From Candidatus Rokuibacteriota bacterium (GTDB taxonomy: Bacteria > Methylomirabilota > Methylomirabilia > Rokubacteriales > CSP1-6): DNA of 64,000 bases. The position numbers and the translations under genes were made by a program. The notes under the pieces were generated by a model that was not told the origin of the DNA, ran no database searches, and saw nothing but the letters and a program-made list of their open reading frames with translations. Position 1 is the first letter of the stretch, and each line of letters begins with the position of its first letter. Shown piece after piece: positions 12,420 to 39,558 of the stretch. The stretch covers positions 1 through 64,000 of the forward strand of contig JACPIQ010000025.1 in NCBI GenBank assembly GCA_016188005.1. The letters are read 5' to 3'.

Positions 12420-13106
12420 ATGATCGAGATCGCGGGCCTCTTCATGCGGCTGTCGAGCGGCGGCAGGCCGCTGGAGGTGCTGAGCGATATCTCTCTCGAG
12501 GTGCCGGCCCGCCAGTTCGTGGCCATCGCGGGGCCTTCGGGCAGCGGGAAGTCCACCCTCCTCGGCCTCATCGCCGGGCTCGACCGGCCGAGCGCCGGCC
12601 GCATCACGGTCGGCGGTGTGGAGGTCACGCGGCTCGACCAGGACGCGCTGGCCCGCTTCAGGCGCGACACCATCGGTTACATCTTCCAGTCCTTCCATCT
12701 GATCCCGACACTCACGGCGCTGGAGAACGTGGCGGTGCCGCTCGAGCTGGGCGGCGACCGCGACGCGCTCGACCGGGCGCGCGCCCTCCTCGCCGAGGTG
12801 GGGCTCGCGGAGCGCGCCCACCATTACCCCGTGCAGCTCTCCGGCGGCGAGCAGCAACGCGTGGCCGTGGCGCGCGCCATCGCACGCCGGCCGCCGTTGC
12901 TCCTGGCCGACGAGCCCACGGGCAACCTCGACTCCGCCACGGGCAAGCAGATCATCGACCTCCTGCTGGCGCTGAACCGGACCCTGGGGAGCACGCTGGT
13001 GCTGGTGACCCACGACTCGGCGCTGGCCGCGCATGCCGACAGGCTGGTGCTGCTCCGCGACGGACGCATCGTGGGCGACGAGCCGATGAACGGGGCCATC
13101 GCGTGA
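12420..13106 (+). CDS. ABC transporter ATP-binding protein (YbbA/LolD/MacB-type).
   Basis: Walker A (GPSGSGKSTLLGL), Q-loop, ABC signature (LSGGEQQRVAVARA), Walker B (LLLADEPTGNLD) and H-loop (VTHD). Confidence 0.9.
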   Translation: MIEIAGLFMRLSSGGRPLEVLSDISLEVPARQFVAIAGPSGSGKSTLLGLIAGLDRPSAGRITVGGVEVTRLDQDALARFRRDTIGYIFQSFHLIPTLTALENVAVPLELGGDRDALDRARALLAEVGLAERAHHYPVQLSGGEQQRVAVARAIARRPPLLLADEPTGNLDSATGKQIIDLLLALNRTLGSTLVLVTHDSALAAHADRLVLLRDGRIVGDEPMNGAIA

Positions 13107-13111
13107 TCGGG

Positions 13112-15595
13112 ATGGCCGCGCGCGAGCTGCGCGGAGCCTGGCGGCACTGGGGCTATGCGCTGGCCTGTGTCACGCTGGGAGTGGGCGCGGTGGTCGCCGT
13201 GGGGAGCTTCGCCGATGCGCTGGAGCGGACGGTCGGCCGCTCGGCCCGGGCGCTCATGGGCGCCGATGTGGAGATCCGCTCGACGCGGCCCCTGTCCGGC
13301 GAGGCGGACCGCGCGCTCGACGCCCTGGCGCCCGAGGGGATCGAGCGCCTGCACGTGGCGGAGCTGGCGGCCATGGCGCGCGCCGGAGACGCGAGCGCGC
13401 TCGTCGAGCTCAAGGCAGTCCCGGCGGGCTACCCGTTCTATGGCCGGCTCACGACGGACCCGGACCGCCCGCTCCCGGCGCTGATCGGCGGCAGGCGTGC
13501 CCTCGTCCAGGACGCGTTGCTGGCGCGGCTGGGCCTTGCTCCGGGCGATCGCGTGTGGATCGGCGAGGCGGAGTTCACCATCGCCGGACGCATCACCGGA
13601 GAGCCTGACCGCTCGGCAGGCGTCTTCTCGCTCGGGCCGCGCGTCCTCATCGCCGACGGCGATCTCCCCGCCACCGGCCTCATCCAGCCGGGCAGCCGCG
13701 TCCGCCACCGCACCCTGCTGCGCCTTCCGGCGGGCGAGGAGGCGGACGGGCTCCGCGAGCGCGTGGCACAGCTCCTGCCCGACCCCGGGCTCCGCATCAC
13801 GACCTTCAGGCAGGCACAACCCGGGCTGCGTCGCTTCTGGGATCAGCTCACGCTCTATCTGGGGCTCACGGGACTCGTGGCACTCCTGGTGGGCGGCATC
13901 GGCGTGGGATCGAGCGTCAGCGCCTTCATCCGCGAGCGGCTCCGGACCATCGCCATTCTCAAGTGTCTGGGCGCCGGCTGGCGTCAGGTGCTCGCGATCT
14001 ACCTCGCGCAGACGGTGACGCTGGGGCTGGCCGGCGGCATGCTCGGGGCGGCCATGGGCACAGCGCTCCAGCCGCTGCTGATCCCGTTCCTCTCGACCCT
14101 CCTGCCCTTCGAGGTGGAGCCGGTGTTCTCCCCGGGGGCGATCCTCCGCGGGATCGCGCTCGGGCTGGGCGTCACGCTCCTCTGCTCGCTCTGGCCGCTG
14201 CTCGAGATCCGGCGCGTGCCCCCGGCGCTGATCCTGAGGCGCGAGATCGAAGGCGCCCTGCCCGGCCGGCGTCCCTGGGGCGCCGCGCTCCCCATCGCGG
14301 CGGGGCTGGCGGCGCTGGCGCTCTGGCAGGCGGGGTCCTGGAAGGTCGGCGGTCTCTTCGTCGGCGGGGTTGCCGCGGGGCTCGGCCTCCTCCTCCTGGC
14401 CGGGCGGGTCGCCATCGTGGTGTCCCGGCGGCTGCCGCGCCGCGGACCGCTGGTCTGGCGCCAGGGTGTGGCGGCGCTCCATCGCCCGGGCGGCCACACG
14501 CCAGCCGTCCTCGTCACGCTGGGGCTGGCCGTGATGCTCATCGTCTCGGTGGTGCTCCTCGAGCGGAGCCTTCGCAGCGAGATCGCGGGGCGCAGCCCCG
14601 AGCGAGCGCCGGCCTTCTTCTTCGTGGACGTGCAGCCCGATCAGGCTGAGCGCTTCGCGCGCCTCGTCGCCGAGACCAGTGGCGAGGCGCCTCCCGAGCT
14701 GATCCCGGTGGTGCGCTCGCGACTGGCGGCGATCAAGGGAGTGCCCGTGGCGCCCGAGGCGGGGCGGCGAGAGGAACAGTGGTACCTCACCCGCGAGTAC
14801 GTGCTGACCTGGGCGGCGGCGGCGCCGGGGCGCGACACCGTCGTGACCGGGCGCTGGTGGACGCCCGAGGAGGCGGCCCGCGAGCCGCTCTGCTCGGTCG
14901 AGGAGGAGATCGCGCGCACGCTGGGCGTCGCCCTCGGCGACACGCTGGCCTTCGACATCCAGGGCGTGACCGTGTCGGCCCGCGTCGCAAGCCTCAGGAA
15001 GGTCGACTGGCGGAGCCTCGGCGCCAACTTCTTCGTGATCTTCTCCCAGGGAGCGCTCGACGGCGCGCCCAGCATCTACCTCGCCACGGCGCGTGTGCGC
15101 CCCGAGCGGGAGGCGGCCGTGCAGTCAGCCGTGGTCACCGCCTTCCCCAACGTCACCGCCATCCCGGTCCGCGAGGTCCTCGAGCGCGTGGCGGCGATTC
15201 TCGAGCAGATCACGCTGGCCATCCGCCTGGTGGCGGCCTTCACCGTCGTGGCGGGGCTGGTGGTGCTGGCGGGAGCGCTGGCCATGACACGCCACCAGCG
15301 GCTCTACGAGTCGGTGATCTTCAAGGCCGTGGGCGCCACGCGAGGCCTCCTGGCCCGGGCCTTCGCCGTGGAGTACGCGCTCCTGGGCGGGGCGGCGGGG
15401 CTCGCCGGGACAGGGCTGGCCAGCGTGCTGGCGTGGGTCGTCGAGCGTTTCTTCCTCGAGGTGCCGTGGCGATGGCAGCCCGCGACGCTCCTGCTGGGAG
15501 TGGCGGGCCCCGCTGTCCTCGCCCTCGCTGTGGGCTTCCTCGCCAGCTTCCGCCTCCTCGGTCATCCGCCCCTCGGCGTCCTCCGCCAGGAGTGA
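13112..15595 (+). CDS. FtsX-like ABC transporter permease, two-FtsX-domain type (YbbP-like).
   Basis: The in-frame continuation of track ORF 11777..15595 + from MAARELRGAWRHWGYALACVTLGVGAVVAVGSF is ~828 aa. It has two repeated TM/FtsX halves (LVALLVGGIGVGSSV...; LVAAFTVVAGLVVLAGALAMT...). The start ATG is 6 nt after the ATPase stop; an alternative GTG at 13103 overlaps that stop. Confidence 0.8.
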   Translation: MAARELRGAWRHWGYALACVTLGVGAVVAVGSFADALERTVGRSARALMGADVEIRSTRPLSGEADRALDALAPEGIERLHVAELAAMARAGDASALVELKAVPAGYPFYGRLTTDPDRPLPALIGGRRALVQDALLARLGLAPGDRVWIGEAEFTIAGRITGEPDRSAGVFSLGPRVLIADGDLPATGLIQPGSRVRHRTLLRLPAGEEADGLRERVAQLLPDPGLRITTFRQAQPGLRRFWDQLTLYLGLTGLVALLVGGIGVGSSVSAFIRERLRTIAILKCLGAGWRQVLAIYLAQTVTLGLAGGMLGAAMGTALQPLLIPFLSTLLPFEVEPVFSPGAILRGIALGLGVTLLCSLWPLLEIRRVPPALILRREIEGALPGRRPWGAALPIAAGLAALALWQAGSWKVGGLFVGGVAAGLGLLLLAGRVAIVVSRRLPRRGPLVWRQGVAALHRPGGHTPAVLVTLGLAVMLIVSVVLLERSLRSEIAGRSPERAPAFFFVDVQPDQAERFARLVAETSGEAPPELIPVVRSRLAAIKGVPVAPEAGRREEQWYLTREYVLTWAAAAPGRDTVVTGRWWTPEEAAREPLCSVEEEIARTLGVALGDTLAFDIQGVTVSARVASLRKVDWRSLGANFFVIFSQGALDGAPSIYLATARVRPEREAAVQSAVVTAFPNVTAIPVREVLERVAAILEQITLAIRLVAAFTVVAGLVVLAGALAMTRHQRLYESVIFKAVGATRGLLARAFAVEYALLGGAAGLAGTGLASVLAWVVERFFLEVPWRWQPATLLLGVAGPAVLALAVGFLASFRLLGHPPLGVLRQE

Positions 15596-28483: not shown

Positions 28484-29412
28484 CTACTTGCCGAGCCGGC
28501 GGCGCAGTCCCTCGCAGGGATCCGGCCGCACGGCCGGAGGCGTGAGCCAGACGATGTCGCCCGTTGCCTCCCGCACCACCTCGCCCGGATCGTCCCCCGG
28601 ACGCGCCTCGAGCAGCTCGACCACGAGCTGACGCGTCCCGGGCCGCAGCGCCTCGAGCTGGGCAGGCAGGCCGCCGGGCGCCTGATGGCCGCGCCCGGCG
28701 ATCACCACCACCTGCGGCGCCTGCCCGAGCGCCTCGGCGAGCCGCCGGGCCCCTCGGCGAGCCGCCGGGCCATGGCCACGTTGCGCGCATGCCAGCTCTC
28801 CACCATGGTGGGGATCGCCCGCTCGGGCAGCAGATCGCAGTGCCCCTCCTGGATGCTCCGGGCGATGGCCGCCTCCCGCCTGGGATCGGGAGGGAGCAGG
28901 GAGGCGAGACGCGCCCCGTCCGCCGACACCGCCAGCCCCTCCCGCGCGATCCGCCGCACGAGGGCGGGCTCCAGATCCGTCGCGAGGACGCGCAGCCTGT
29001 GCTGCCGCGCCACCTCGAAGAGCGGCCAGTACATGGCGAAGTCCGGCCAGCCCGCCCGGCTCCAGCCGAGCGCGGCATCGAGCTCGGCCGGCCCGCCGGA
29101 GGCGCCGAGCGCCTGATCCACGGTGCTCTGCCGCTCCGCGGGCAGCATCTCGAAGGCCACGACCGGGCGGGCGCCCTCTGCCAGCAGGGCCTCGAGCACC
29201 CGGCGCTGCTGGGCGTGATGGTGGGGGTTGTCGTGCACCTCGCCGAGGTAGAGCACCTCGACGCCGCGGGCGCTCTGCGCGACCAGGCCCGCCTGGCGCC
29301 CGGAGTCGCCAGACAGGGCGAGCACGAGGGAGGCCGGGCCGATGCCGGCGGGGGCGGCGCAGGCGGAGAGCAACAGGGCCGTCGCGGCCAGGAGTCGTAT
29401 TTCGATTATCAT
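28484..29412 (-). pseudogene. ChaN-like (Tiki/TraB/GumN superfamily, PF04187-like) lipoprotein gene disrupted by a ~20-bp tandem duplication.
   Basis: The N-terminal frame reads MIIEIRLLAATALLLSAC (lipobox)...VLYLGEVHDNPHHHAQQRR...ARNVAMARRLAE and then frameshifts. The duplicated CCTCGGCGAGCCGCCGGGC sits at 28731..28770. Removing one copy restores the frame into ...ALGQAPQVVVIAGRGHQAPGGLPAQLEAL...CEGLRRRLGK, which is track ORF 28484..28711 -. Confidence 0.65.
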
Positions 29413-29421
29413 GGCCCCATT

Positions 29422-31302
29422 ATGAGCCTTCCCGGGTGGTGGCGGGAACGCCGGGCGCGTGTCCTGCAGCTCTGGGGGGTGGGCATGGCCGCCAGCTTGC
29501 TCGTCACCGCGGCCTCCTCCCTGGGCTATCTCGAAGCCCTCCAGGCCCGGAGCGCCGACATCCTGATACACCTCCAGGGGCAGCGATTCGCCCCCGAGGT
29601 GGTGGTGGTCGCCATCGACGAGGAGGCCTTCGAGTCGCTCGGCCGACGCCAGCCCCTGCCCCGTGACTACCTCGCCAGGCTGCTGCGCGGGCTCCAGCGC
29701 GCCGGCGCCGCGGTGGTGGGAGTCGATATGGCGTTCAGCACCCCCACCACCGAGGCCGACGACGGGGCGCTGGCCCGGGCGATCACGGACTTCTCCGATG
29801 GGGGCGTGAGCCGCGTGGTCCTGGTGGAGGCGCCGCCTCCCAGGACCGGGCCCCTGGCCGACCCCGCCTTTCTGGGCTCGGTGCTCCGCGGAGCGGCCGA
29901 CGTCCCCCTGGACCGGGACGGGGTGATCCGTCGCGTCGCTCTCCTCTTGCCGCGGGGCTCGGAGCCGCCGCTGCCCGCCCTCTCGCTGGCCGTCGTGGCG
30001 CGCCTGGCGGGGCTGACCCGGGGCATGCTCGAGATCTCCCTCCGGGAGCGCGGCGGCATCTCGCCGCCCGCCTGGCGCGTCGGCGGAGGCTGGAGCCTCG
30101 TCGGGACGCCAGCGCTGGCGCTCCGGTCCAACGAGCTGTGGCGCATCAATTACGTGGGGCCCGCGGGCTCCTTCCTCGCGATCCCGAGCGGCGCCGTGGT
30201 GGCGCTGGCGGAGGACACGGCCGAGCTGGCCGCCGACAACCCGCTGCGCGGGCGGATCGTGCTGGTCGGGGGCACCTACGGCGAGAGCCGGGACTTCTAC
30301 CCGACGCCCCACGGCAGCATCGCCGGCGTCGAGGTGCACGCCAACGTGATCCACATGCTCGTGACCGGCTCCCACATCCGGCCCTCCGGCTGGGTCAGGA
30401 GCCTCGCCTTCCAGATCGCCATCGTCATGCTGGCCGGCGTCGTGATGGCCATCCTCCGTCCGCTGGCTGGCACCCTCGTCTGCCTCACGGCGGCCGTGCT
30501 GCTGGGGGTGCCCGCCTCGTACCTCGCCTTCCAGCGCAGCGGCTACTGGGTGGACTTCCTCCTGCCCGTCATCGTCACCTCGCTCCTCGGCCTCGTGGCG
30601 GAGGGGTTGGCCCGCCGGCGCTTCCGCGACTCCTTCGGTCGCTACGTGAGCCGGGAGATCGCCGCACAGGTGCTGGCCGAGGCCCCGAGCCTCCGCGGCG
30701 AGCGCCGCGCGGTTTCCATCCTCTTCTCCGACCTGCGCGGCTTCACCACGCTGTCCGAGACCATGCCCGCCGAGCAGGTGGCCGCGCGCCTCACCGAGTA
30801 CTTCGAGGCGATGACCGCCGCGATCTTCGCCCACCGCGGCATGATCAACGACTTCGTGGGCGACGGGATCGTCGCCATCTTCGGGGCGCCGCTGGCAGAC
30901 GCCGAGCACGCCTGGCACGCCGTGCTGAGCGCGGAGGCCATGCAGCGGGCACTGGACGGGCTCAACCGGCGCTGGAGCGCCGCGGGGCTCCCGACGCTCC
31001 GCATGGGCATCGGCGTCCACACCGGGCAGGTCTTCGTCGGCAACGTCGGGGGCGCCGCGCGGGTCAAGTACACGGTGGTCGGCGATCCCGTGAACCTGGC
31101 CTCCCGCGTGGAGGGCTTGAACAAGGAGCTCGGAACGACGATCCTGATCACCGAGGAGACGCGAGCGCTGGCCGGGGAGCGGGTGGAGGCCAAGGACCGG
31201 GGCCTCATGGCCGTCAAGGGCCGGAGCCAGCCGGTGCATGTCCACGAGCTGTTGGCGGTGCATGCCGAGCGCTGCCCGCCGCCGGGGGGAGGCGCGACAT
31301 GA
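29422..31302 (+). CDS. CHASE2 extracytoplasmic sensor domain fused to a class III adenylate/guanylate cyclase.
   Basis: From the ATG at 29422: MSLPGWWRERRARVLQLWGVGMAASLLVTAASSLGYLEALQARSADILIHL... It has a CHASE2-type periplasmic region, then TM helices, then CHD blocks (AVSILFSDLRGFTTLSE...FVGDGIVAIFGAP...GIGVHTGQVFVGNVG...YTVVGDPVNLASRVE). Confidence 0.8.
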   Translation: MSLPGWWRERRARVLQLWGVGMAASLLVTAASSLGYLEALQARSADILIHLQGQRFAPEVVVVAIDEEAFESLGRRQPLPRDYLARLLRGLQRAGAAVVGVDMAFSTPTTEADDGALARAITDFSDGGVSRVVLVEAPPPRTGPLADPAFLGSVLRGAADVPLDRDGVIRRVALLLPRGSEPPLPALSLAVVARLAGLTRGMLEISLRERGGISPPAWRVGGGWSLVGTPALALRSNELWRINYVGPAGSFLAIPSGAVVALAEDTAELAADNPLRGRIVLVGGTYGESRDFYPTPHGSIAGVEVHANVIHMLVTGSHIRPSGWVRSLAFQIAIVMLAGVVMAILRPLAGTLVCLTAAVLLGVPASYLAFQRSGYWVDFLLPVIVTSLLGLVAEGLARRRFRDSFGRYVSREIAAQVLAEAPSLRGERRAVSILFSDLRGFTTLSETMPAEQVAARLTEYFEAMTAAIFAHRGMINDFVGDGIVAIFGAPLADAEHAWHAVLSAEAMQRALDGLNRRWSAAGLPTLRMGIGVHTGQVFVGNVGGAARVKYTVVGDPVNLASRVEGLNKELGTTILITEETRALAGERVEAKDRGLMAVKGRSQPVHVHELLAVHAERCPPPGGGAT

Positions 31303-32276
31303 GGATGCGACTCGGGCACCCGACAACACTGGCGATCGGGCTCCTGGTCGGCCTGTCCGTACCCGCCGCCGTCCGGGCGGCGGAGCCCGTGGCGGTCCTC
31401 ACCGAGATCCGGCCGGGCCAGGGCGAGGTGCGGGTCAAGCTCGCCGGAGAGGCGCAGTGGAAGGCTCCCCAACCGCTCCTCTCGCTCCGCCCGGGAGATC
31501 AGGTCCGCGCATCGGCCGACGCCCGCGCGGTCCTCGTGTTCACAGGAGGCCGCGCACCCGAGTCGGTGACCGCCGCCAACTCGCCGTTCGCCGTGGCCGC
31601 TCCCAGCGGAGCGGCGGGCGGCCAGCGGGTCCAGGCCCTCGTCGACAGCGTCACCCAGTTCCTGGTGGGCAAGCAGGACAAGCCGGCCTACGTCTCCCTC
31701 TACGTCCCGCTCTCGACCCGCAGCGTGCGGCTGCCCCCGCCGACCCTCCTCGCCCCACGAGAGACGCGACTGCTGTTCGGCCCCGTCACCTTCGAGTGGT
31801 CCGGCTCGGACCGCCTCCGCTACATGATCCGCCTCTTCGGGCCCGACGGGCTCGTGTGGGAGGAAGGGGGCCTGGTGCGCCAGCCCGTCCTGTACCCGGC
31901 CACAGCCCCCGCGCTGCGCCCCGGCCTGCGCTACGCCTGGGAGCTACACACGGAGCGCCAGCCCGTCCAGCGCGCCGAGTTCGAGATCCTCCCGCCGGCC
32001 GACGCCCGGCGCGTCCAGCAGGCGCTCGCGCTCCTCGTGCCGTCGGCCCTGCCGGGCCAGTCGGGCTCGACCCTCGCGCTCCTCCGCGCGGGCTTCCTCT
32101 CCCAGGAAGGACTCTACCAGGAGGCCCGCAAGGAGCTGCTCGCCGCCATCGCAGCGGACGCCACGGAGCCCTCACTGCATCAGCTGCTCGGCCACGTCTA
32201 CGATCGGATGGGGATGAAGGATCTCGCCACCGATGCCTTCGACGAGGCGCGTTTCCTCGCGACGCCACGGCCCTGA
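31299..32276 (+). CDS. Secreted FecR-domain protein with a C-terminal helical (TPR-like) region.
   Basis: Its ATG overlaps the cyclase stop (ATGA). It has a signal peptide (MRMRLGHPTTLAIGLLVGLSVPAAVRAAEP) and a FecR-like block (LTEIRPGQGEVRVKLAGEAQWKAPQPLLSLRPGDQVRASADARAVLVFTGG). Confidence 0.6.
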   Translation: MRMRLGHPTTLAIGLLVGLSVPAAVRAAEPVAVLTEIRPGQGEVRVKLAGEAQWKAPQPLLSLRPGDQVRASADARAVLVFTGGRAPESVTAANSPFAVAAPSGAAGGQRVQALVDSVTQFLVGKQDKPAYVSLYVPLSTRSVRLPPPTLLAPRETRLLFGPVTFEWSGSDRLRYMIRLFGPDGLVWEEGGLVRQPVLYPATAPALRPGLRYAWELHTERQPVQRAEFEILPPADARRVQQALALLVPSALPGQSGSTLALLRAGFLSQEGLYQEARKELLAAIAADATEPSLHQLLGHVYDRMGMKDLATDAFDEARFLATPRP

Positions 32277-32302: not shown

Positions 32303-32749
32303 TCAGCCGGGGCCCCTGCCCCCCCCGGATACCGGGAGGACCAGCGAGATCCGGTTGCGCTCGCCGTCGCGGACATAGCACAGCTCGCTCGCCAGGCTCT
32401 GGACGAGCCGCAGGCCGAGCCCGCCGACCGGCCGCTCCTCCGCCCCGCCCACCGGCTCCGCCGGACATGCCGCCGTGCGGGGGTCGTGGGGCGGGGCCGT
32501 GTCCTCGTAGGTGAGCGCGATCCGCCCCGGGGTGATCGCGAACCCGAGACGCACCGGCGCCTCGCTGTCCCCCCCATGGCCATGCGTCACCGTGTTGGCG
32601 AAGAGCTCCTCCACCAGCAGGGTGAGCCGGAGGGTGTCCTCGCGGCCGAGACCGGCGGCGCCGCAGATCTCGGCGACGAAGGCGACGGCCGCGGGCAGGG
32701 CATCCATGCGGGCGGGGAAGATTCCGGCCTGGTCGGGAGAGGTCGTCAC
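32303..32749 (-). CDS. Anti-sigma regulatory factor / serine protein kinase (RsbW/SpoIIAB-like, HATPase_c_2).
   Basis: 148 aa. It has the blocks LLVEELFANTVTHGHGG and GGLGLRLVQSLASEL, typical of partner-switching kinases. Confidence 0.7.
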   Translation of the reverse strand: MTTSPDQAGIFPARMDALPAAVAFVAEICGAAGLGREDTLRLTLLVEELFANTVTHGHGGDSEAPVRLGFAITPGRIALTYEDTAPPHDPRTAACPAEPVGGAEERPVGGLGLRLVQSLASELCYVRDGERNRISLVLPVSGGGRGPG

Positions 32750-32811
32750 AGGGTTGCTCGCCGGCTTATTATAGAGGCTGCATCCGGTCGCACCGAGGAA
32801 AGGAGTGCCCC

Positions 32812-33258
32812 ATGACGCGCTGGCCGATCCCCTTCGCGCTGCTCCTCCTCCTGGCCGCCACGCCCGCGCGGGCCGCCGACGTCGGACAGATCAAGGTCTC
32901 GCAGGGCGCCGTCCTCATCGAGCGGGCGGGCCAGAGACTGCCGGCCCCGGTCGGCGCGGGGGTCCAGGAGTCCGACGTGGTCGTGACGGGCGCCGACGGC
33001 TCCGTCGGCATCACCTTCGCGGACGCGAGCCTCCTCTCGGCCGGGCCCCACAGCGTGCTGGCCATCCAGCGCTTCGCCTTCGACCCCACCACGCACGACG
33101 GCGTGTTCGAGACACGCCTCCAGAAGGGAACGCTGGCTGCCGTGTCCGGCAAGATCGCGAAACGATCTCCGGACGCGATGCGGGTCAGGACCCCCGCCGC
33201 CCTGCTGGGCGTGCGCGGCACCGAGCTCGTCGTCCGCGTCACCGAGACCGCGCAGTGA
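32812..33258 (+). CDS. Secreted FecR-domain protein.
   Basis: A signal peptide (MTRWPIPFALLLLLAATPARA) and a FecR-like pattern (VKVSQGAVLIERAGQRLPAPVGAGVQESDVVVTGADGSVGITFADASLLSAGPHSVLAI...LGVRGTELVVRV). Confidence 0.65.
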   Translation: MTRWPIPFALLLLLAATPARAADVGQIKVSQGAVLIERAGQRLPAPVGAGVQESDVVVTGADGSVGITFADASLLSAGPHSVLAIQRFAFDPTTHDGVFETRLQKGTLAAVSGKIAKRSPDAMRVRTPAALLGVRGTELVVRVTETAQ

Positions 33259-33274: not shown

Positions 33275-33889
33275 GTGAGGCGCAAAGCGGGCGAGACGGC
33301 TCTCGGCCTGCTCGTCCTCTCCTTCGCCCTCTGGGCCGGCTGCGCCCGGGCCACCCGCGACGACCTCTACGTCCTGCTCCCCTCGCAGGACGGAACGCAC
33401 GCGGCCGTGGCGGTGACCCATGGCGCCCAGCAGCAGGTGCTCGAGCAGCCGTTTGACGCCGCGCGGATCCGGGTCGAGGGCCAGCTCGAGAAGGGGCGCG
33501 CCACGGAGCAGGAGATCCGCGAGGTCTTCGGAGCCGCCCTCGCCGCCCAGCCCGCCCGCCCGGTCTCGTTCACGCTCTACTTCCTCCACGGCAAGGACGA
33601 CCTCACGCCCGAATCCGAGCAGGTGGTCGGCCAGATCTTCTCCGAGATCGCCCGCCGGCCATCGCCGGAGGTGGTGGTGATCGGCCACGCCGACGCGGTG
33701 GGAAGCCACGAGTACAATGACAGGCTCTCGCTCCAGCGTGCCGGGCGGATGCGCGACGATCTGGTGAAGTGGGGCATCCCGGTCGAGCGCATCCGCGTGG
33801 AGGGGCGCGGCAAGCGCGAGCGGCGTGTGCCCACCGCGGAGGGCGTCCCCGAGCCCCTCAATCGGCGCGTCGAGATCAGCGTCCGCTGA
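33275..33889 (+). CDS. OmpA-family lipoprotein (C-terminal OmpA/MotB peptidoglycan-binding domain).
   Basis: A GTG start 16 nt after the FecR gene stop. It has a lipobox (LWAGCA) and an OmpA C-domain (VVVIGHADAVGSHEYNDRLSLQRAGRMRDDLVKWGIPVERIRVEGRG). Confidence 0.75.
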   Translation: MRRKAGETALGLLVLSFALWAGCARATRDDLYVLLPSQDGTHAAVAVTHGAQQQVLEQPFDAARIRVEGQLEKGRATEQEIREVFGAALAAQPARPVSFTLYFLHGKDDLTPESEQVVGQIFSEIARRPSPEVVVIGHADAVGSHEYNDRLSLQRAGRMRDDLVKWGIPVERIRVEGRGKRERRVPTAEGVPEPLNRRVEISVR

Positions 33890-35951
33890 CCGCGGCGCCT
33901 GGCCCGGCGGCGGCCGGCGCGCCCGGGGCCCCTCCCGGGCCATTCCAGCGCAGGACCATGATGGTGACATCGTCGGCCGGCTCCACTCCCTCGGTGAAGC
34001 CCGCCACGTCGGTGCGGATCGCGTGGCCCACGGTCTCCGGGCCTGCGCCCGTGCCGAGGCCGGCGAGCAGCGCCTCGAGCCGTTTGCGCCCGTAGAGCTC
34101 GCCCGACTTGCCCCGTGCCTCGGTGACGCCGTCGGTGACGAGGCAGAGCGTCTCGCCCGGCTCCATCTGGCGGGTCGCCGCCAGATAGGGAAATTCCTCC
34201 AGGACGCACAGGGGGGGGCCGCCGCCGCCCGAGAGCCTCTCGAGTCCGCGCTCGCCGTGGGGCAGGAGCCAGGGATCGTCGTGGCCGGCATTGCAGTACT
34301 CGAGCACGCCCATCCTCGCATCCAGGATGCCCGCGAAGAGGGTGACGAACAGCAGCTCCGTGTTGTCGCGTGAGATCTCGACATTCGCCTCGCGCATCAT
34401 GGCCGCGACCTGCCCACGGCGGCGGAGCGCGGTGCTCTTGTAGAGCGACTTGCTGACCGCCATGAAGAGGCTCCCGGGCAGGCCCTTGCCCGAGACGTCC
34501 CCGACGAGGAAGACGAGCCGGTCCTCGTCGAGGCGAAAGAAATCGTAGAGGTCCCCGCCCACTTCCTGCGCGGGCTCGAGAAAGGTGTACAGGCTGAAGC
34601 GCCGTTCCCCGGGGAACGCGCTGGCCGGACTCGGCAGGCTGCCCATCTGGATGCGACGGGCCGCCTCGAGCTCGCCCGCAACGCGGGCAGCCGCCTCGCG
34701 CTGCCGCTCCACCTGGCGGCGCAGGCTGGAGCGCTGACTGTCGGCCTCGGCCAGGGTGAGCCCGAGCATCGCGGTGAAGAGCCCCGCGAGGCCCATCGCC
34801 GGCGCCACCGCGTCCACGAGGATGCCCGCGCCCACGAAGAGCGCGATGCCCACGCCGAGGACCGCCGCAACCGCTCCCAGCCCCACCAGCACCGAGCGCC
34901 CCACGGGAAGCCCTGGCACCAGCAAGACGAGTCCGAGCCCACCGGCCAGGAGCAGGCCCGACTCGAGCCAGCGCGTCCAGGCCGGGCGCGACAGCAGGGT
35001 GCCGTCGACCAGCCCTTCCAGGAGCTGCGCGTGGATCTCCACGCCGGACATCCGGTCGCCCAGCGGCGTCGCCTGATAGTCCGAGAGTCCGAGCGCCGTG
35101 ACGCCGACGAGGACGAGCTTGCCGCGGAGCCGCGCCGGCTCGATCGCGCCGGCCAGCAGGTCGACGGCGGAGACGAATCGCGCCGGATCATGCGGCGAGA
35201 AGTGAAGCCACGCGCTGCCGTCGGGCTCGCTGCGCGCCGTCACGTCGCCGATGCCCACCGCCTCCAGCCCGCCCCTCCCCACTCGAAGGGTCAGCGCCGG
35301 CGTCCGGGTCGCCACCCGGAGCATCTCGACGCCGAGACCCGGCACGGGGGTTCGCCCCACCGCAGCCAGCAGCGGCAGCCGCCGGACCACGCCCGCTTCC
35401 GTATCCGCCGAGAGGAGACCATGCGCCCGGGCCGCGGCGTGGATCTCGTCGACGCTGCGGATGACTGACCCGTAGCGTCGAAGAAAAGGGATGGGATCGC
35501 CCCCGACCAGCCGCAGCGTCGGCTCGCGGAGCGCCGGGCGGGCGGCCGGAGACTCCGCGGTGTCGAGCCCGCCCACGCCCAGCACCGCCGGCAGGGCCCG
35601 GAGGGTCTCAGCCAGCGTCCCGTCGTTGGTGGGCATGCGCGCGAGGCGCTCCACCACCTCGCGCTCCATCCCCTGCACGAGGTCCGGGAGCCGGTCGGGC
35701 GAGAGCCGGTCCGGCTCCGGCATCAAGATGTCCAGCCCGATGGCGGCCGGGTCCGCCTCGCCGATCCTGGAGAGCAGCCGCGCGAGGAGTGTCCGCGGCC
35801 AGGGCCACTGGCCGTGACGGTCGAGACTCGCCTCATCCACGGCCACGATCAGCACGGGGGCGGTCGCGCGCTGACGCGGCGCCAGCATCTGGTAGGCATC
35901 GAAGCCGGCGAGGCGCAGCCAGCGAAGCCCGGACGGCCCGAGCGCGAGCAC
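33876..35951 (-). CDS. CHASE2 sensor domain fused to a PP2C/SpoIIE-type serine phosphatase (RsbU-like). The N-terminus is probably longer than annotated.
   Basis: A CHASE2 region (PVLIVAVDEASLDRHGQWPWPR...), C-terminal TM helices and a PP2C domain (FVGDVSGKGLPGSLFMAVSKSLY...GILDARMGVLEYCNAGHDDPWLL...VTDGVTEA). The open frame continues upstream of the first canonical start (35951). It encodes ...RPWLRALRGRRGRPAGLALLAVLLAGVLALGPSG (a TM helix) with no ATG/GTG/TTG up to the MBL gene stop. Confidence 0.7.
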   Translation of the reverse strand: MLALGPSGLRWLRLAGFDAYQMLAPRQRATAPVLIVAVDEASLDRHGQWPWPRTLLARLLSRIGEADPAAIGLDILMPEPDRLSPDRLPDLVQGMEREVVERLARMPTNDGTLAETLRALPAVLGVGGLDTAESPAARPALREPTLRLVGGDPIPFLRRYGSVIRSVDEIHAAARAHGLLSADTEAGVVRRLPLLAAVGRTPVPGLGVEMLRVATRTPALTLRVGRGGLEAVGIGDVTARSEPDGSAWLHFSPHDPARFVSAVDLLAGAIEPARLRGKLVLVGVTALGLSDYQATPLGDRMSGVEIHAQLLEGLVDGTLLSRPAWTRWLESGLLLAGGLGLVLLVPGLPVGRSVLVGLGAVAAVLGVGIALFVGAGILVDAVAPAMGLAGLFTAMLGLTLAEADSQRSSLRRQVERQREAAARVAGELEAARRIQMGSLPSPASAFPGERRFSLYTFLEPAQEVGGDLYDFFRLDEDRLVFLVGDVSGKGLPGSLFMAVSKSLYKSTALRRRGQVAAMMREANVEISRDNTELLFVTLFAGILDARMGVLEYCNAGHDDPWLLPHGERGLERLSGGGGPPLCVLEEFPYLAATRQMEPGETLCLVTDGVTEARGKSGELYGRKRLEALLAGLGTGAGPETVGHAIRTDVAGFTEGVEPADDVTIMVLRWNGPGGAPGAPAAAGPGAAVSGR

Positions 35952-36058
35952 CCCGGCGAGCAGGACGGCCAGCAGGGCCAGCCCGGCGGGCCGGCCGCGC
36001 CGGCCACGCAGGGCGCGCAGCCACGGCCGGTCGGCCCAGTGCCGATGGTCCGACCCGG

Positions 36059-37018
36059 TCAGACGGCGATCTCCATCCCGTCGTAGGCGGCCGAGATCTC
36101 GAGCCGCCGGCCGCTCCGCGTGAGCTCCTCGAGCCGGCGGGTCTCGCGCAGGATCCCGGCGATCTTCGCGTCGTCGTGGAGGGGCTCGTGATGGTACAGG
36201 CAGAGGTGCTTGACGGCCGCCAACTGGCAGAGCTCCACGCCCACGATATTGCTCGAGTGCCCCCAGTCCTCCTTGACCGAGATGGCATCGGCCAGCGAGT
36301 ACATGGCGTCGAAGATCACCAGGTCGGCGTCGCGAAAGAACTCGACGAAGGCCGCGGTCTCGCCGGGATCGTCACGCTTGTGTTCGGAGTCCGTCGAGTA
36401 CACCACCGCCTTGCCCTCTCTCTCGAAGCGATACCCGTAGGAGTCGCCCGAGTGCACCTGCCTGTGGGGCCGCACTTTCAGCCCCGCCATCGCGTAGTCG
36501 CGGCCGGCCTCCAGGCGGACGAACTCGATGGTGGCGCTGAGCTGCGAGAACTCCACCGGGAACGAGGGCGCCCCGTGCTGCCGGCGGAAGGCCTCCTCCA
36601 GGGCCGCGTGGCAGCCGTAGATGCGAATCCGGTTCCCGGGGAGATAGGCGGGGACGAAGAACGGAAAACCCATGATGTGGTCCCAGTGCGGGTGCGACAT
36701 GAAGACGTGGTACGTCTGGCCCCGGGCCGGGCCGTGCCGGGCGAGCGCGTGGTGGCCAAAGACCTGGGCCCCGGACCCGAGGTCACAGAGCACGTACTCG
36801 CCGCTCCCCGTCTCGATCTCCACGCACGAGGAGTTCCCGCCGAAGCTGTGCGCGGTCGCGAACTCCAGCTCGCGCTCCACGAAGGCTCGTGCCTTCGCCG
36901 GTGTGTCGAGCCCGCGTCCCGCTCCACGTACCAGCGCCGTCACGATCTTCTCCGTGACGGCGGCGGCAGACAGCGATACCGGGATGGAGCCGCGCGTGCC
37001 CCAGAAGCGGACGAGCAT
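36059..37018 (-). CDS. MBL-fold metallo-hydrolase.
   Basis: MLVRFWGTRGSIPVS... with the HxHxDH motif (SHPHWDHIMGFPFF). It is 319 aa. Its start ATG shares one nt with the STAS gene stop, and its stop abuts the upstream-extended CHASE2-PP2C frame. Confidence 0.7.
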   Translation of the reverse strand: MLVRFWGTRGSIPVSLSAAAVTEKIVTALVRGAGRGLDTPAKARAFVERELEFATAHSFGGNSSCVEIETGSGEYVLCDLGSGAQVFGHHALARHGPARGQTYHVFMSHPHWDHIMGFPFFVPAYLPGNRIRIYGCHAALEEAFRRQHGAPSFPVEFSQLSATIEFVRLEAGRDYAMAGLKVRPHRQVHSGDSYGYRFEREGKAVVYSTDSEHKRDDPGETAAFVEFFRDADLVIFDAMYSLADAISVKEDWGHSSNIVGVELCQLAAVKHLCLYHHEPLHDDAKIAGILRETRRLEELTRSGRRLEISAAYDGMEIAV

Positions 37019-37404
37019 CAGCCCACGCCGGTCTGCGAGAAGGCCGCGAGCGCCGCCGGCGAGACGGCGGCCAGCGCGTCGCGCGTGGTCGGGTACACGT
37101 CCAGGACCAGGTGGAAGCGGCTGATCTCGAAGATCTCGCGCACGATCGGCCCCAGCGCCGCGACGACCATCGTGCCCCCCTGCGCCTTGACCTGCTTGGC
37201 GGCCAGCATGAGCACGCGGAGACCCGCGCTGCTGATGTACTCCACGCCGGAGAGATCGAGGACCACACGGTCCCGCTCCGCCCCGCACCGGTCGAGGTGC
37301 GGCGCCAGCGCGGCCTTGAAATCGGGCGACACGGTGTGGTCGATGCGGCCGGCGGGACAGAGGATCACGGCGTCAGCGCAGCGGCGCGGTGCCAGCTCCA
37401 TGGT
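37018..37404 (-). CDS. STAS-domain anti-sigma-factor antagonist (SpoIIAA/RsbV-like).
   Basis: ...RDRVVLDLSGVEYISSAGLRVLMLAAKQVKAQGGTMVVAAL... with the conserved phosphorylatable Ser context (DLSGVEYISSAGL). The start is the ATG at 37404 (MELAPRR...). Confidence 0.7.
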   Translation of the reverse strand, partial: TMELAPRRCADAVILCPAGRIDHTVSPDFKAALAPHLDRCGAERDRVVLDLSGVEYISSAGLRVLMLAAKQVKAQGGTMVVAALGPIVREIFEISRFHLVLDVYPTTRDALAAVSPAALAAFSQTGVG

Positions 37405-37557
37405 CGGCTCGAATCTTACCACGCGAGGTCCTCCGGCGGGGGAGCCGGCGGGCATCCTGCGGCGGGACGAGATCAGATCAGCGTGCGACGTGTGCCCTGG
37501 GCCCGCGCCCGTGGAGTCACTCGGCGACGGGTCCGCGCGCGGCGGCGGGTCGTGGGC

Positions 37558-39558
37558 TCAGCGACGGCGGAGGCGCCGCCGCGCCGCCTCGAGCGCGTGA
37601 CGGAACCGGGAATCATCGGGGCGCAGCCGCAGCGCCTCCGCGTAGGCGGCAGCGGCCTCGTCGAGCCGCCTGAGCCGGACGAGCACCGCACCCAGGCGGG
37701 CGTGGGCCTCGGCGTGATCGGGCTTGACGCGGATCGCCTCGCGATAGGCCACCTCGCACTCGGCGTGCTTGCCTTGCCGCTCGAGCACCGTCCACAGGTT
37801 GAAATGATTCTGCGCCTCGGCCGGGCGCAGGCGGAGCGCCTCGCGATAGGCGGCCTCGGCCTCGGCATGGAGCCCCTGGGCCAGGAGCACGCCGCCGAGA
37901 CCGCGGTACGCCGACGGGCTGTCGGGCTTGGCGGCGATGGCGGCGCGGAAGGCCTCCGCCGCTTCCGCGGGCCGCCCCTGCTCGCTCAGGAGCTCGCCAA
38001 GATAGCTGTGGGTGCGCGCGAAGCCGGGCTTGAGGTGGGCCGCCTCGCGCAGCGCCGCCTCCGCCGCCGCGTACTTGCCCTGGAAGTACAGGACCACGCC
38101 GAGCCCCCGATGCAGCGCGGCGCCCCCGGGCTTGACGCGCAGGGCCTCGCGGTACACCGCCTCGGACTGCGCGTAGCGCCCCTGGCGGCCGAGGCCGACG
38201 GCGAGATTGCCGAGGGCGACCACATTCGTCGGGGCGAGCCGGACGGCCTCGCGCAGCGCCGCCTCCGCCTCGGCATGCTTGCCCTGCCGCCCGAGCGCGA
38301 TGCCCAGCTCCACGTGGTGATCGGCATCGCCCGGCGCCAGGGCCACCGCGGCGCGGAAGGCCGCTTCCGCCTCGGCGTCGAGCCCCTGGGCCGACAGCGC
38401 GAGCCCCAGATCGTAATGCAGCTCCGGATCGTCAGGACACAGGCGCAGCGCCCGGCGGTAGGTGTCGGCCTCCTCGGCCCAGCGGCTCTCCCGCCGGAGC
38501 ACCGCGGCCAGTCCCAGGTGGGTCGCGAGGTCCTCGGGGTGCAGACGGATCGCCTCCCGGAACGCCAGCGCGGCGGCGGCGAAATGCCCCTGGTGCTCGA
38601 GGACGCGGCCCAGGCGACCGTGCCACGCCGCGTTGCCAGGCTCGAGCCGGATCGCTTCCCGCAAGGCGGCCGCGGCCTCGCCGTGACGGCGCAGACGCCA
38701 GAGGACGACGCCCAGGCGGCCGTGGAGCGCGGCGACCGAGCCGCGGAGGCGGATGGCCTCGCGATAGGCGGCGGCGGCCGCACGCCAACGGCGCTGACGG
38801 CGCAGCACGCCGGCCAGGTGCGCGCGCGCCCTGGCAGAGGTGGGCGCGAGCCTGACGGCCTCGGCGAGCGCCACCGCCGCCTCGGCGTGCTTTCCCTGGG
38901 CGGCCAGGACCATCCCGAGCCCGTCGTGGACGTGGGGGTTCCGCGGCGCGAGCCTCGCCGCTTCCCTGAAGGCCGTCTCGGCCTCGAGGCGCAGGCCGCG
39001 GCGCGCAAGCGCGATGCCGAGGTTCTGTTGCGCCTCGGCGTGGCCAGGCGCCAGCCGCACGGCGTCGCGCAGCGCCTGCTCCTCGTCGGCGTACCTGCCC
39101 TGCCGCCGGCACATGAGGCCCAGCCGGAGAGGCACGAGAGGATGATCGGGCCTGAGCACCGCGGCCGCATGGTACGCCGCCTCGGCCTCGGCCCAGCGCC
39201 GCTGCCGCTCCAGCGCCAGCCCGAGCTTGAAGTGCCCCCTGAAGGCCTGCGGCGCCTGCGCCACCGCCTCGCGGTACTCGGCTTCCGCCTCGACCGGGCG
39301 CCCCTGCTCCAGGAGCGCATCGCCCAGGTCCACGCGCGCCGCGGCGGCCCGCGGCGAGAGGCGCACGGCCTCCCGGAAGGCGGCTTCCGCCTCTCGCGTG
39401 CGCCGCTGGCGGGTGAGGGCGGCGCCGAGCCGGGAATAGGCTTCCGCGCGCCGGGGGTCGCCCTCGATCGCGTGACGGCACTGGCGCTCGGCCTCGGCGT
39501 CGCGCCCCTCGCGAAGCGATGCCGCCGCGCGCTGCAGCCAGAGGGTGGTCTCGTCCAC
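37558..39558 (-). CDS. Tetratricopeptide-repeat protein (~19 consecutive 34-aa TPR units).
   Basis: 666 aa made of AEAxxREAxRLxP... units repeated throughout. There is no other domain. Confidence 0.8.
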   Translation of the reverse strand: MDETTLWLQRAAASLREGRDAEAERQCRHAIEGDPRRAEAYSRLGAALTRQRRTREAEAAFREAVRLSPRAAAARVDLGDALLEQGRPVEAEAEYREAVAQAPQAFRGHFKLGLALERQRRWAEAEAAYHAAAVLRPDHPLVPLRLGLMCRRQGRYADEEQALRDAVRLAPGHAEAQQNLGIALARRGLRLEAETAFREAARLAPRNPHVHDGLGMVLAAQGKHAEAAVALAEAVRLAPTSARARAHLAGVLRRQRRWRAAAAAYREAIRLRGSVAALHGRLGVVLWRLRRHGEAAAALREAIRLEPGNAAWHGRLGRVLEHQGHFAAAALAFREAIRLHPEDLATHLGLAAVLRRESRWAEEADTYRRALRLCPDDPELHYDLGLALSAQGLDAEAEAAFRAAVALAPGDADHHVELGIALGRQGKHAEAEAALREAVRLAPTNVVALGNLAVGLGRQGRYAQSEAVYREALRVKPGGAALHRGLGVVLYFQGKYAAAEAALREAAHLKPGFARTHSYLGELLSEQGRPAEAAEAFRAAIAAKPDSPSAYRGLGGVLLAQGLHAEAEAAYREALRLRPAEAQNHFNLWTVLERQGKHAECEVAYREAIRVKPDHAEAHARLGAVLVRLRRLDEAAAAYAEALRLRPDDSRFRHALEAARRRLRRR

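Follow-up and report, generated by a model that had tools for sequence, protein, structure and literature searches.

CHASE2 receptor genes adjoin genes for secreted FecR-type proteins in a Rokubacterial genome and, recurrently, across bacteria

We analyzed a 64,000-nucleotide stretch of DNA from Candidatus Rokuibacteriota bacterium (GTDB lineage Bacteria; Methylomirabilota; Methylomirabilia; Rokubacteriales; CSP1-6; GenBank assembly GCA_016188005.1, contig JACPIQ010000025.1, positions 1 to 64,000 of the forward strand), hereafter the window, in which two CHASE2 receptor genes each lie beside a gene for a secreted FecR-type protein. We find that the pairing is genuine and conserved, and that it shows strong enrichment across bacteria. 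The first receptor carries a predicted nucleotidyl cyclase and is followed by a 325–amino acid (aa) protein of the MtxA family (module 1); the second carries a PP2C phosphatase and has a 148-aa FecR protein nearby (module 2). To our knowledge, CHASE2 is among the most widespread bacterial extracytoplasmic sensor domains, and almost nothing is known of what it detects. Should a dedicated secreted partner regularly belong to the receptor, the search would move from the ligand to the partner protein and to what that partner binds.

FecR-type genes are concentrated beside CHASE2 genes. We sampled the best 80 CHASE2 loci found by tblastn with the window's cyclase in contigs of one genome per species, a nonrandom set spanning Methylomirabilota, Proteobacteria, Desulfobacterota, Nitrospirota, Cyanobacteria, Chloroflexota, candidate phyla, and others. 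A FecR-type open reading frame (ORF) was present within the 10-kb flanks at 49 of the 80 loci, on the same strand as the receptor gene in 46 of the 49, and it was the immediate neighbor (within 200 bp) in 37 of the 80. The density of FecR domains was 27.8 per 100 kb within 500 bp of the CHASE2 gene versus ~1 per 100 kb beyond 5 kb; within 1 kb, it was ~16 times that found beyond 3 kb. Twenty-seven of the 49 FecR-type domains lay within 1 kb of the CHASE2 gene, where 6.6 were expected (binomial test, P = 7e-12). Pfam confirmed FecR in 33 of the 35 cases that were not MtxA-like. An earlier note, made from the sequence of the window alone, had suggested that CHASE2 and secreted FecR-type proteins recur together, and had named a lack of enrichment near other CHASE2 genes as the result that would speak against it. 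Our survey found enrichment across phyla and output domains, with conservation in both subfamilies of the window.

The partner is found with diverse outputs. Among receptors with a cyclase output, 26 had a FecR neighbor, 13 an MtxA-like neighbor, and 19 no partner; among those with other outputs, the numbers were 9, 1, and 12, respectively. These other outputs with a partner included histidine-kinase, GGDEF, and Ser/Thr-kinase domains, and the PP2C family of module 2 is a fifth. Because the pairing is present with all five, it tracks the sensor domain and not the output. The FecR partners often bear extra modules (TPR in six, LysM in three, and others) or are accompanied by a separate OmpA gene. 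Among the cyanobacterial loci, two CHASE2 kinases (L053 and L066) are followed immediately downstream by a FecR gene in the opposite orientation, and eight partnerless loci (L050, L062, L070, L071, L075, L078, L081, and L086) are syntenic CHASE2 Ser/Thr kinases beside LeuA-like and NYN-domain genes.

By profile homology, the 325-aa partner of the cyclase is an MtxA-family member. MtxA (MGR_0208) of magnetotactic bacteria is likewise secreted, is 313 aa long, and is built of the same four regions (PDB 4Z29; PMC4439547). The AlphaFold2 (AF2) model of the 325-aa protein is confident (pLDDT 86, pTM 0.83) and shows a signal peptide, then a small beta domain (aa 27-100), followed by a helix, an Ig-like sandwich, and a TPR-like domain. 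This matches the architecture of the family (signal peptide, beta N-region, Ig-like domain, and TPR domain in ~313-325 aa), and the N-terminal signal sequence is also recognizable by eye. A profile of the close family (A1) gave no match to 4Z29 at E<=1, and a profile of the Ig-like domain only gave none at E<=10. Profile A10, built from 30 more distant members that were themselves found by A1 at E<=1e-28, matched 4Z29_A with E=5.3e-16 in a single stretch over residues 18-295. We count the protein as a family member because this broadened profile reaches MtxA, that is, through transitive homology only. A search of 1.84 billion cluster representatives returned at least 773 family clusters (50% identity) at E<=1e-10, mostly of 310-330 aa. 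The orphan protein MtxA, whose name is historical, gains this family and a likely context unrelated to magnetotaxis. At one locus, L052, an ORF that matches the MtxA profile in its Ig-like/DUF928 part (E=1e-05) stands between the CHASE2 gene and a separate FecR gene (12424..13434 and 13597..14307), so that two genes there seem to share the MtxA domains between them.

The N-domain of the 325-aa protein is, on the evidence of profile comparisons, FecR-like without being a Pfam FecR member. The earlier note had held that both CHASE2 sensors adjoin a gene for a FecR-domain protein with a signal peptide; this is correct for the gene at 32812..33258, and for that at 31299..32276 it stands only as a FecR-like N-domain. 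A Pfam and NCBIfam scan of the 325-aa protein found no FecR match; for PF04773 there was none at E<=10, short of the Pfam gathering threshold. Among 39 relatives, Pfam recognized FecR in none, DUF928 (PF06051) in 30 (best E 9.6e-07), and TPR in 38. A hidden Markov model (HMM) built solely on 38 FecR domains that had been checked with Pfam, from other proteins encoded beside CHASE2, matched the 325-aa protein with E=5.8e-06, versus 0.086 for the best unrelated ORF among 5838, and it matched all 19 MtxA-like N-termini tested (E 5e-09 to 5e-03). In the reverse direction, the seven best matches of the N-domain HMM outside its own family were all FecR proteins. The similarity covers the N-terminal ~70-80 residues, corresponding to about the first half of a FecR domain, and two of 30 distant relatives reached Pfam FecR at E~1e-3. 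An hhalign comparison of the N-domain family with the true FecR family was weak (probability 17%, pairwise E 0.0014) and cannot stand alone. Searched against the PDB, the N-domain profile gave a chance NusG match only.

The pair in module 1 is tightly arranged. As the earlier note had read, the genes overlap by ATGA: The cyclase stop TGA (31300-31302) overlaps the ATG at 31299 of the MtxA-like gene, which suggests translational coupling of the cyclase and its partner. The cyclase start, which the note had put at 29412, is instead the ATG at 29422, and 29412 is the first base of the minus-strand ChaN gene. A CHASE2-cyclase gene was directly upstream of the MtxA-like gene on the same strand in all five relatives looked up, with other neighbors varying. 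Of the MtxA-like genes at the genome loci, all 14 lie directly against a CHASE2 gene, and at least seven share the 4-bp overlap. The receptor belongs to PF05226 (CHASE2 domain 144 bits; cut-off 26.3), and its predicted Guanylate_cyc domain scored 75.4 bits (cut-off 21.9). Transmembrane (TM) segments read from the sequence place one TM helix at the N-terminus, ahead of the periplasmic CHASE2 domain, and three more between that domain and the cyclase domain in the cytoplasm; the N-terminus WWRERRARVLQLW is conserved among homologs. As separate observations, CHAT or caspase-like (Peptidase_C14) genes adjoin the pair in three of the five relatives (L168 6482..7897; L169 8..1462; the P0120 contig) and are absent from the window. 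CHASE2-cyclase genes, one of them followed by an MtxA-like gene, also occur in a metagenome-assembled genome labeled as the archaeon Candidatus Nitrosocosmicus (L008 and L016; DASRWT010000061.1 and DASRWT010000021.1). Their products are 71% and 38% identical to the Rokubacteria protein, and the contigs look like mis-binned bacterial DNA.

In module 2, the FecR gene lies upstream of an OmpA gene that is convergent with the CHASE2-PP2C gene, as the earlier note had described. The FecR domain (aa 55-144 of the 148-aa protein) exceeds the Pfam gathering threshold (PF04773, 38.2 bits; cut-off 24), and the signal sequence appears cleavable by eye. All relatives of this protein carry PF04773, and their neighborhoods show the same arrangement. 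The OmpA-like gene follows 16 bp 3' of the FecR gene, its end overlaps the convergent CHASE2-PP2C gene by 14 bp, and its product has an N-terminal signal sequence and a lipobox (by eye). The CHASE2-PP2C protein also belongs to PF05226 (173 bits; cut-off 26.3). As listed among the ORFs, its gene starts at GTG 35951 and encodes 691 aa. Judged from the sequence, it almost certainly starts further upstream: The in-frame stretch 35952..36062 (minus strand) encodes HWADRPWLRALRGRRGRPAGLALLAVLLAGVLAL, which matches the N-termini of homologs and their first TM helix, and TM1 is present only with such an upstream start. This extension holds no ATG, GTG, or TTG, and its only candidate start is the CTG at 36062, which overlaps the stop of the metallo-beta-lactamase (MBL)–fold gene (CTGA); the alternative is an assembly error. 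For the STAS gene, the true start may be an internal ATG, giving ~127 aa.

The genes STAS–MBL–CHASE2-PP2C / OmpA–FecR / RsbW-like form a conserved six-gene cluster. We compared 80 metagenomic loci encoding CHASE2-PP2C proteins 45-69% identical to that of the window. Convergent OmpA and FecR genes were present in 53-54 of the 55 loci with enough downstream sequence (one extra apparent exception was an ORF-calling artefact). A STAS gene was upstream in 47 of 47 related loci and an MBL gene in 41 of 47; beyond FecR, 30 of the 39 loci with enough sequence had an RsbW-like gene. The parts of the cluster all co-diverge, at distance correlations of r = 0.86-0.92. The cluster thereby encodes together the PP2C (PF07228), STAS (PF01740/TIGR00377), and RsbW-like (PF13581) proteins of RsbU/RsbV/RsbW-type partner switching. 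No sigma factor gene is among those of the cluster; in relatives L006 and L007, an ECF sigma gene is ~4 kb away. Several NCBIfam matches remained below cut-off: RsbA/RsbW for the RsbW-like gene, YiaD (9.1e-19) and YfiB (6.4e-15) for the OmpA-like protein, and, far below it, RNase_Z (1.3e-16) and cyc_nuc_deg_phdiest (2e-14) for the MBL-fold hydrolase. A homolog of this hydrolase weakly matched Anti-Pycsar Apyc1, and a role in nucleotide hydrolysis beside a cyclase gene is conceivable. A scan for the sigma-70-like consensus gave two sites in 7.6 kb versus 0.2 expected, as pattern matches only. Our literature search found no description joining CHASE2 with PP2C or with partner switching.

We considered whether the two modules make up one larger conserved unit and rejected this, as none of the 80 PP2C loci had an MtxA-like gene or a linked CHASE2-cyclase; the side-by-side placement is found in this genome only. 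The region is instead best explained as two independent signaling modules, each with an inner-membrane CHASE2 receptor at its center and a secreted FecR-type partner of its own.

The CHASE2-FecR pairing has already been documented piecemeal, and the idea is less new than the earlier note implied. A LysM-FecR protein adjoins a CHASE2 histidine kinase in Burkholderia (the BiofilmReg operon) and in Pseudomonas aeruginosa (the PA4035/PA4036-type pair), and LysM-FecR fusions are described in Burkholderia (PMC5192318). A Campylobacterota cluster combines a CHASE2 adenylate cyclase, a phosphodiesterase, a FecR-domain protein of the outer membrane, and a TPR protein (PMC9239204). In Sinorhizobium meliloti, cyaD1 adjoins the FecR-domain gene smc02177 (PMC5498481). 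A DUF928 gene beside a CHASE2 gene has been noted in Nostoc (PMC5587647). MtxA adjoins a CHASE2 adenylate cyclase, and the paper describing it reported no homology and did not note the FecR-like N-domain (PMC4439547). The literature found on the pairing holds no link between MtxA and the FecR fold, no account of its breadth across outputs, and no PP2C cluster. Our analysis joins MtxA, the Burkholderia BiofilmReg operon, the Campylobacterota cluster, and the Sinorhizobium neighbors into one pattern. The statement of the earlier note that CHASE2 ligands are unknown also needs qualifying, as the CHASE2 cyclases of S. meliloti respond to the plant protein uL2 via the outer-membrane protein NsrA (PMC13001267).

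Building on the observed gene identities, architectures, homologies, conservation, and enrichment, we infer a scheme in which physical contact, the direction of signaling, and the nature of the signal stay conditional. It is plausible that the FecR-type partner acts on the periplasmic CHASE2 domain, and for this reading as a whole, two modules with such partners, we put the odds at about even. The FecR-type domain would contact CHASE2 and set the activity of the cytoplasmic enzyme, and the other end of the partner, or a companion, would report on outer envelope layers or on a protein ligand. This other end would be the Ig and TPR domains in module 1 and the OmpA-like lipoprotein in module 2, linking to peptidoglycan, the outer membrane, or a protein ligand. 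CHASE2 would then receive protein-mediated trans-envelope input, instead of binding a small ligand itself. Downstream in module 2, the PP2C phosphatase would dephosphorylate the STAS protein, which would bind the RsbW-like kinase/anti-sigma factor, following the established partner-switching scheme. We liken the logic to the FecA-to-FecR relay and the layout to YfiB-YfiR-YfiN.

A broader proposal, that CHASE2 domains in general are inner-membrane docking sites for secreted FecR-fold adaptors and not ligand-binding sensors, is tentative, and we give it clearly less than an even chance. If it is true, then the MtxA family, LysM-FecR, FecR-TPR, and FecR with OmpA would be versions of one ancient partnership, which would carry outer-envelope, protein-mediated information to cyclase, kinase, GGDEF, or PP2C outputs. 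Such a partnership would parallel the FecA-FecR relay, but would be widespread and lack a sigma factor. For the window itself, the result is a sound annotation of a nine-gene signaling region and no new principle.

Several observations weigh against a sensory role of the partner, which the earlier note had put as that of a periplasmic co-sensor or ligand presenter. The FecR-type neighbor is absent at 31 of the 80 loci, so it is not obligatory or is encoded elsewhere; at these loci, Pfam on 121 neighboring ORFs found unrelated housekeeping genes only and no alternative conserved partner. Note also that percentages from the 80 loci are indicative and no census, because the sample is biased to relatives of this cyclase. 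In module 2, the FecR and OmpA genes are convergent to the receptor gene and not co-transcribed with it. Across 32 complete clusters, all parts co-diverged, and the mirror-tree/partial correlation was not discriminating: FecR and the periplasmic domain gave a partial r of 0.55 versus 0.22 for the reverse, and the cytoplasmic STAS control gave 0.51 versus 0.36. Deletion of mtxA in Magnetospirillum had no phenotype (PMC4439547). In S. meliloti, perception needs the outer-membrane protein NsrA (PMC13001267), smc02177, smc02178, and smb20495 are targets of the cyclic adenosine monophosphate (cAMP) regulator Clr, and smc02177 and smc02178 were reported not to be required for plant-signal perception (PMC5498481). 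This is the sole experimental test that we found, and it argues against a role in signal perception.

The Sinorhizobium results also speak in favor of the main rival, under which FecR-type proteins are outputs and not inputs of the pathway, that is, envelope proteins controlled by the second messenger or by partner switching and kept adjacent for co-regulation. Both smc02178 and the FecR-domain gene smc02177 beside cyaD1 are induced by cAMP-Clr, and the separately transcribed FecR-OmpA pair of module 2 has a promoter-like site of its own (a pattern match). However, the conserved overlap in module 1, with the coupling it suggests, fits a fixed-ratio complex better than a regulated target, and a pairing that follows CHASE2 over five unrelated output chemistries is hard to explain for a target of any one output. 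We consider this explanation unlikely, and it is the best placed of the alternatives.

A second explanation, which we rate as unlikely too and slightly below the first, is that the genes have an envelope-related function in common and stay adjacent for the sake of joint inheritance or expression, with no direct contact between the FecR-type protein and CHASE2. The partnerless loci and the nondiscriminating co-divergence test are compatible with this. Against it stand the closeness of the partner (within 200 bp in 37 of the 80 loci), its shared strand in 46 of 49, the conserved start-stop overlaps, and the near invariance of OmpA and FecR in module 2. A narrower version, after the ligand presenters of the earlier note, has the FecR-type protein bind a small molecule in the periplasm and pass it to CHASE2 like a periplasmic binding protein; this would fit secreted, soluble partners with conserved adjacency. 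Yet no partner resembles a known small-molecule binding fold, the added modules (TPR, Ig-like, LysM, and OmpA) bind proteins or peptidoglycan, the known role of FecR is a protein-protein relay, and the one identified CHASE2 signal, uL2, is a protein. We therefore regard ligand presentation as improbable. Lastly, the adjacency in the window might be coincidental, since the two modules lie side by side in this genome only and no PP2C locus has an MtxA-like gene, but each pairing alone is conserved and enriched, and the enrichment refutes this.

The arrangement has known counterparts of varying closeness. The MtxA pair shares with module 1 both the architecture of the secreted protein and its adjacency to a CHASE2 adenylate cyclase. 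It differs in gene order, as mtxA precedes the cyclase gene in magnetotactic bacteria whereas the partner gene here follows and overlaps the cyclase stop; moreover, the host of the window is not known to be magnetotactic, and direct sequence similarity to MtxA is undetectable. The Burkholderia and P. aeruginosa pairs likewise have a secreted FecR-domain protein and a peptidoglycan-binding module beside a CHASE2 receptor. Their output, in contrast, is a histidine kinase with a response regulator, their genes are co-directional, and LysM is fused to FecR, whereas the peptidoglycan-binding module in the window is a separate OmpA-like lipoprotein. In Campylobacterota, FecR and TPR functions accompany a CHASE2 cyclase on separate proteins, together with a dedicated phosphodiesterase, whereas the MtxA-like protein of the window has both in one chain. 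The Campylobacterales locus in our sample (L059) gave no FecR match in our HMM search. The CyaD1/CyaD2/CyaK system of S. meliloti resembles the window in having a CHASE2 cyclase with a FecR-domain gene nearby (SMc02177), and the signal there arrives via an outer-membrane protein; unlike in our proposal, the FecR-domain gene there is a pathway target reported as unneeded for perception.

Other systems are alike in logic or layout. According to the passage of PMC5498481 that cites it, the periplasmic FecR domain of Escherichia coli FecR takes its signal from the outer-membrane protein FecA. The FecA-FecR-FecI system offers a periplasmic FecR domain as a protein-protein relay from an outer-membrane component to an inner-membrane signaling step. 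However, the window's two proteins are short and secreted, without the cytoplasmic anti-sigma domain and TM helix, and no ECF sigma or TonB-dependent transducer gene is adjacent; their neighbors are RsbW-like kinase, OmpA, and CHASE2 genes, so they are not FecIRA-type anti-sigma regulators. YfiBNR of P. aeruginosa joins an OmpA/Pal-like lipoprotein of the outer membrane and a small, soluble protein of the periplasm to an inner-membrane signaling enzyme that has a periplasmic domain. Module 2 shares this three-part layout only, as an analogy of logic. FecR is not homologous to YfiR, nor CHASE2-PP2C to YfiN, and the OmpA-like protein reached only 55.4 bits against the YfiB model (cut-off 128). 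As in RsbU-RsbV-RsbW, module 2 encodes a PP2C phosphatase together with a STAS antagonist and an RsbW-like kinase, but its phosphatase is part of a membrane receptor whose periplasmic domain is CHASE2, an MBL-fold gene separates STAS and PP2C, and no cognate sigma factor is evident in the cluster.

The coordinates of all features are listed in Table 1. The G+C content of the window is 72%, and its 325-aa protein is 100% identical to one from a metagenome-assembled genome of Candidatus Rokubacteria/Methylomirabilota.

Table 1. Features of the 28.7-37.5 kb region of the window.
Feature	Position	Strand	Evidence and remarks
ChaN-like (Cofac_haem_bdg) lipoprotein gene	28702..29412	-	PF04187 1.5e-38; start CAT 29410-29412 read from sequence
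CHASE2 + class III nucleotidyl cyclase, 626 aa	29422..31302	+	PF05226 6.8e-42 (aa 25-340); PF00211 5.7e-21 (aa 429-603)
MtxA-family secreted protein, 325 aa	31299..32276	+	Start overlaps cyclase stop (ATGA)
MtxA-like protein, N-terminal beta domain, aa 27-105, divergent FecR-like half-domain	31377..31613	+	
MtxA-like protein, Ig-like beta-sandwich, aa 149-230, DUF928-related	31743..31988	+	AF2 strands; aligns with MtxA-Big domain of 4Z29
MtxA-like protein, TPR-like helical domain, aa 233-321	31995..32261	+	
RsbW-like anti-sigma-factor / serine kinase (HATPase_c_2), divergent from FecR gene	32303..32749	-	PF13581 4.5e-22
Sigma-70-like promoter match, in 62-bp gap 5' of FecR gene	32743..32772	+	Consensus scan; pattern match only
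Small secreted FecR-domain protein, 148 aa	32812..33258	+	PF04773 2e-09; signal sequence MTRWPIPFALLLLLAATPARA/AD
OmpA/Pal-like peptidoglycan-binding lipoprotein, 204 aa	33275..33889	+	PF00691 8e-17; lipobox LWAGC
CHASE2 + PP2C (SpoIIE-type) phosphatase	33876..36062, or ..35951 as ORF-listed	-	PF05226 1.5e-50; PF07228 4.6e-41
MBL-fold hydrolase, between STAS and CHASE2-PP2C genes	36059..36994	-	PF12706 8.1e-17
STAS anti-sigma-factor antagonist (RsbV-like), presumed PP2C substrate	37018..37455	-	PF01740 2e-18; TIGR00377 3.8e-21, above cut-off

The ChaN-like gene, whose product has an N-terminal lipobox (by eye), is context and not a conserved part of module 1; among all loci, it was conserved only in the closest relative, L011. 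The 9-bp spacing that the earlier note had seen between its start and the divergent cyclase start is accurate (gap 29413-29421) and is kept in L011 as well (8550..8590). If the starts as annotated are right, a gap of only 9 bp would force the promoters of both genes into coding sequence, as the note had reasoned. For either gene, there is no space at 29400..29430 for a promoter or a normal ribosome-binding site outside the coding sequence of the other. On the minus strand, a CATAAT 6 nucleotides 5' of the ChaN ATG would, as judged by eye, be compatible with a leaderless transcript. At the other end of the region, just past the STAS gene, a 666-aa protein consists nearly entirely of TPR repeats (37558..39558, minus strand), and the MtxA-family HMM touches its TPR region with E=4.8e-06.

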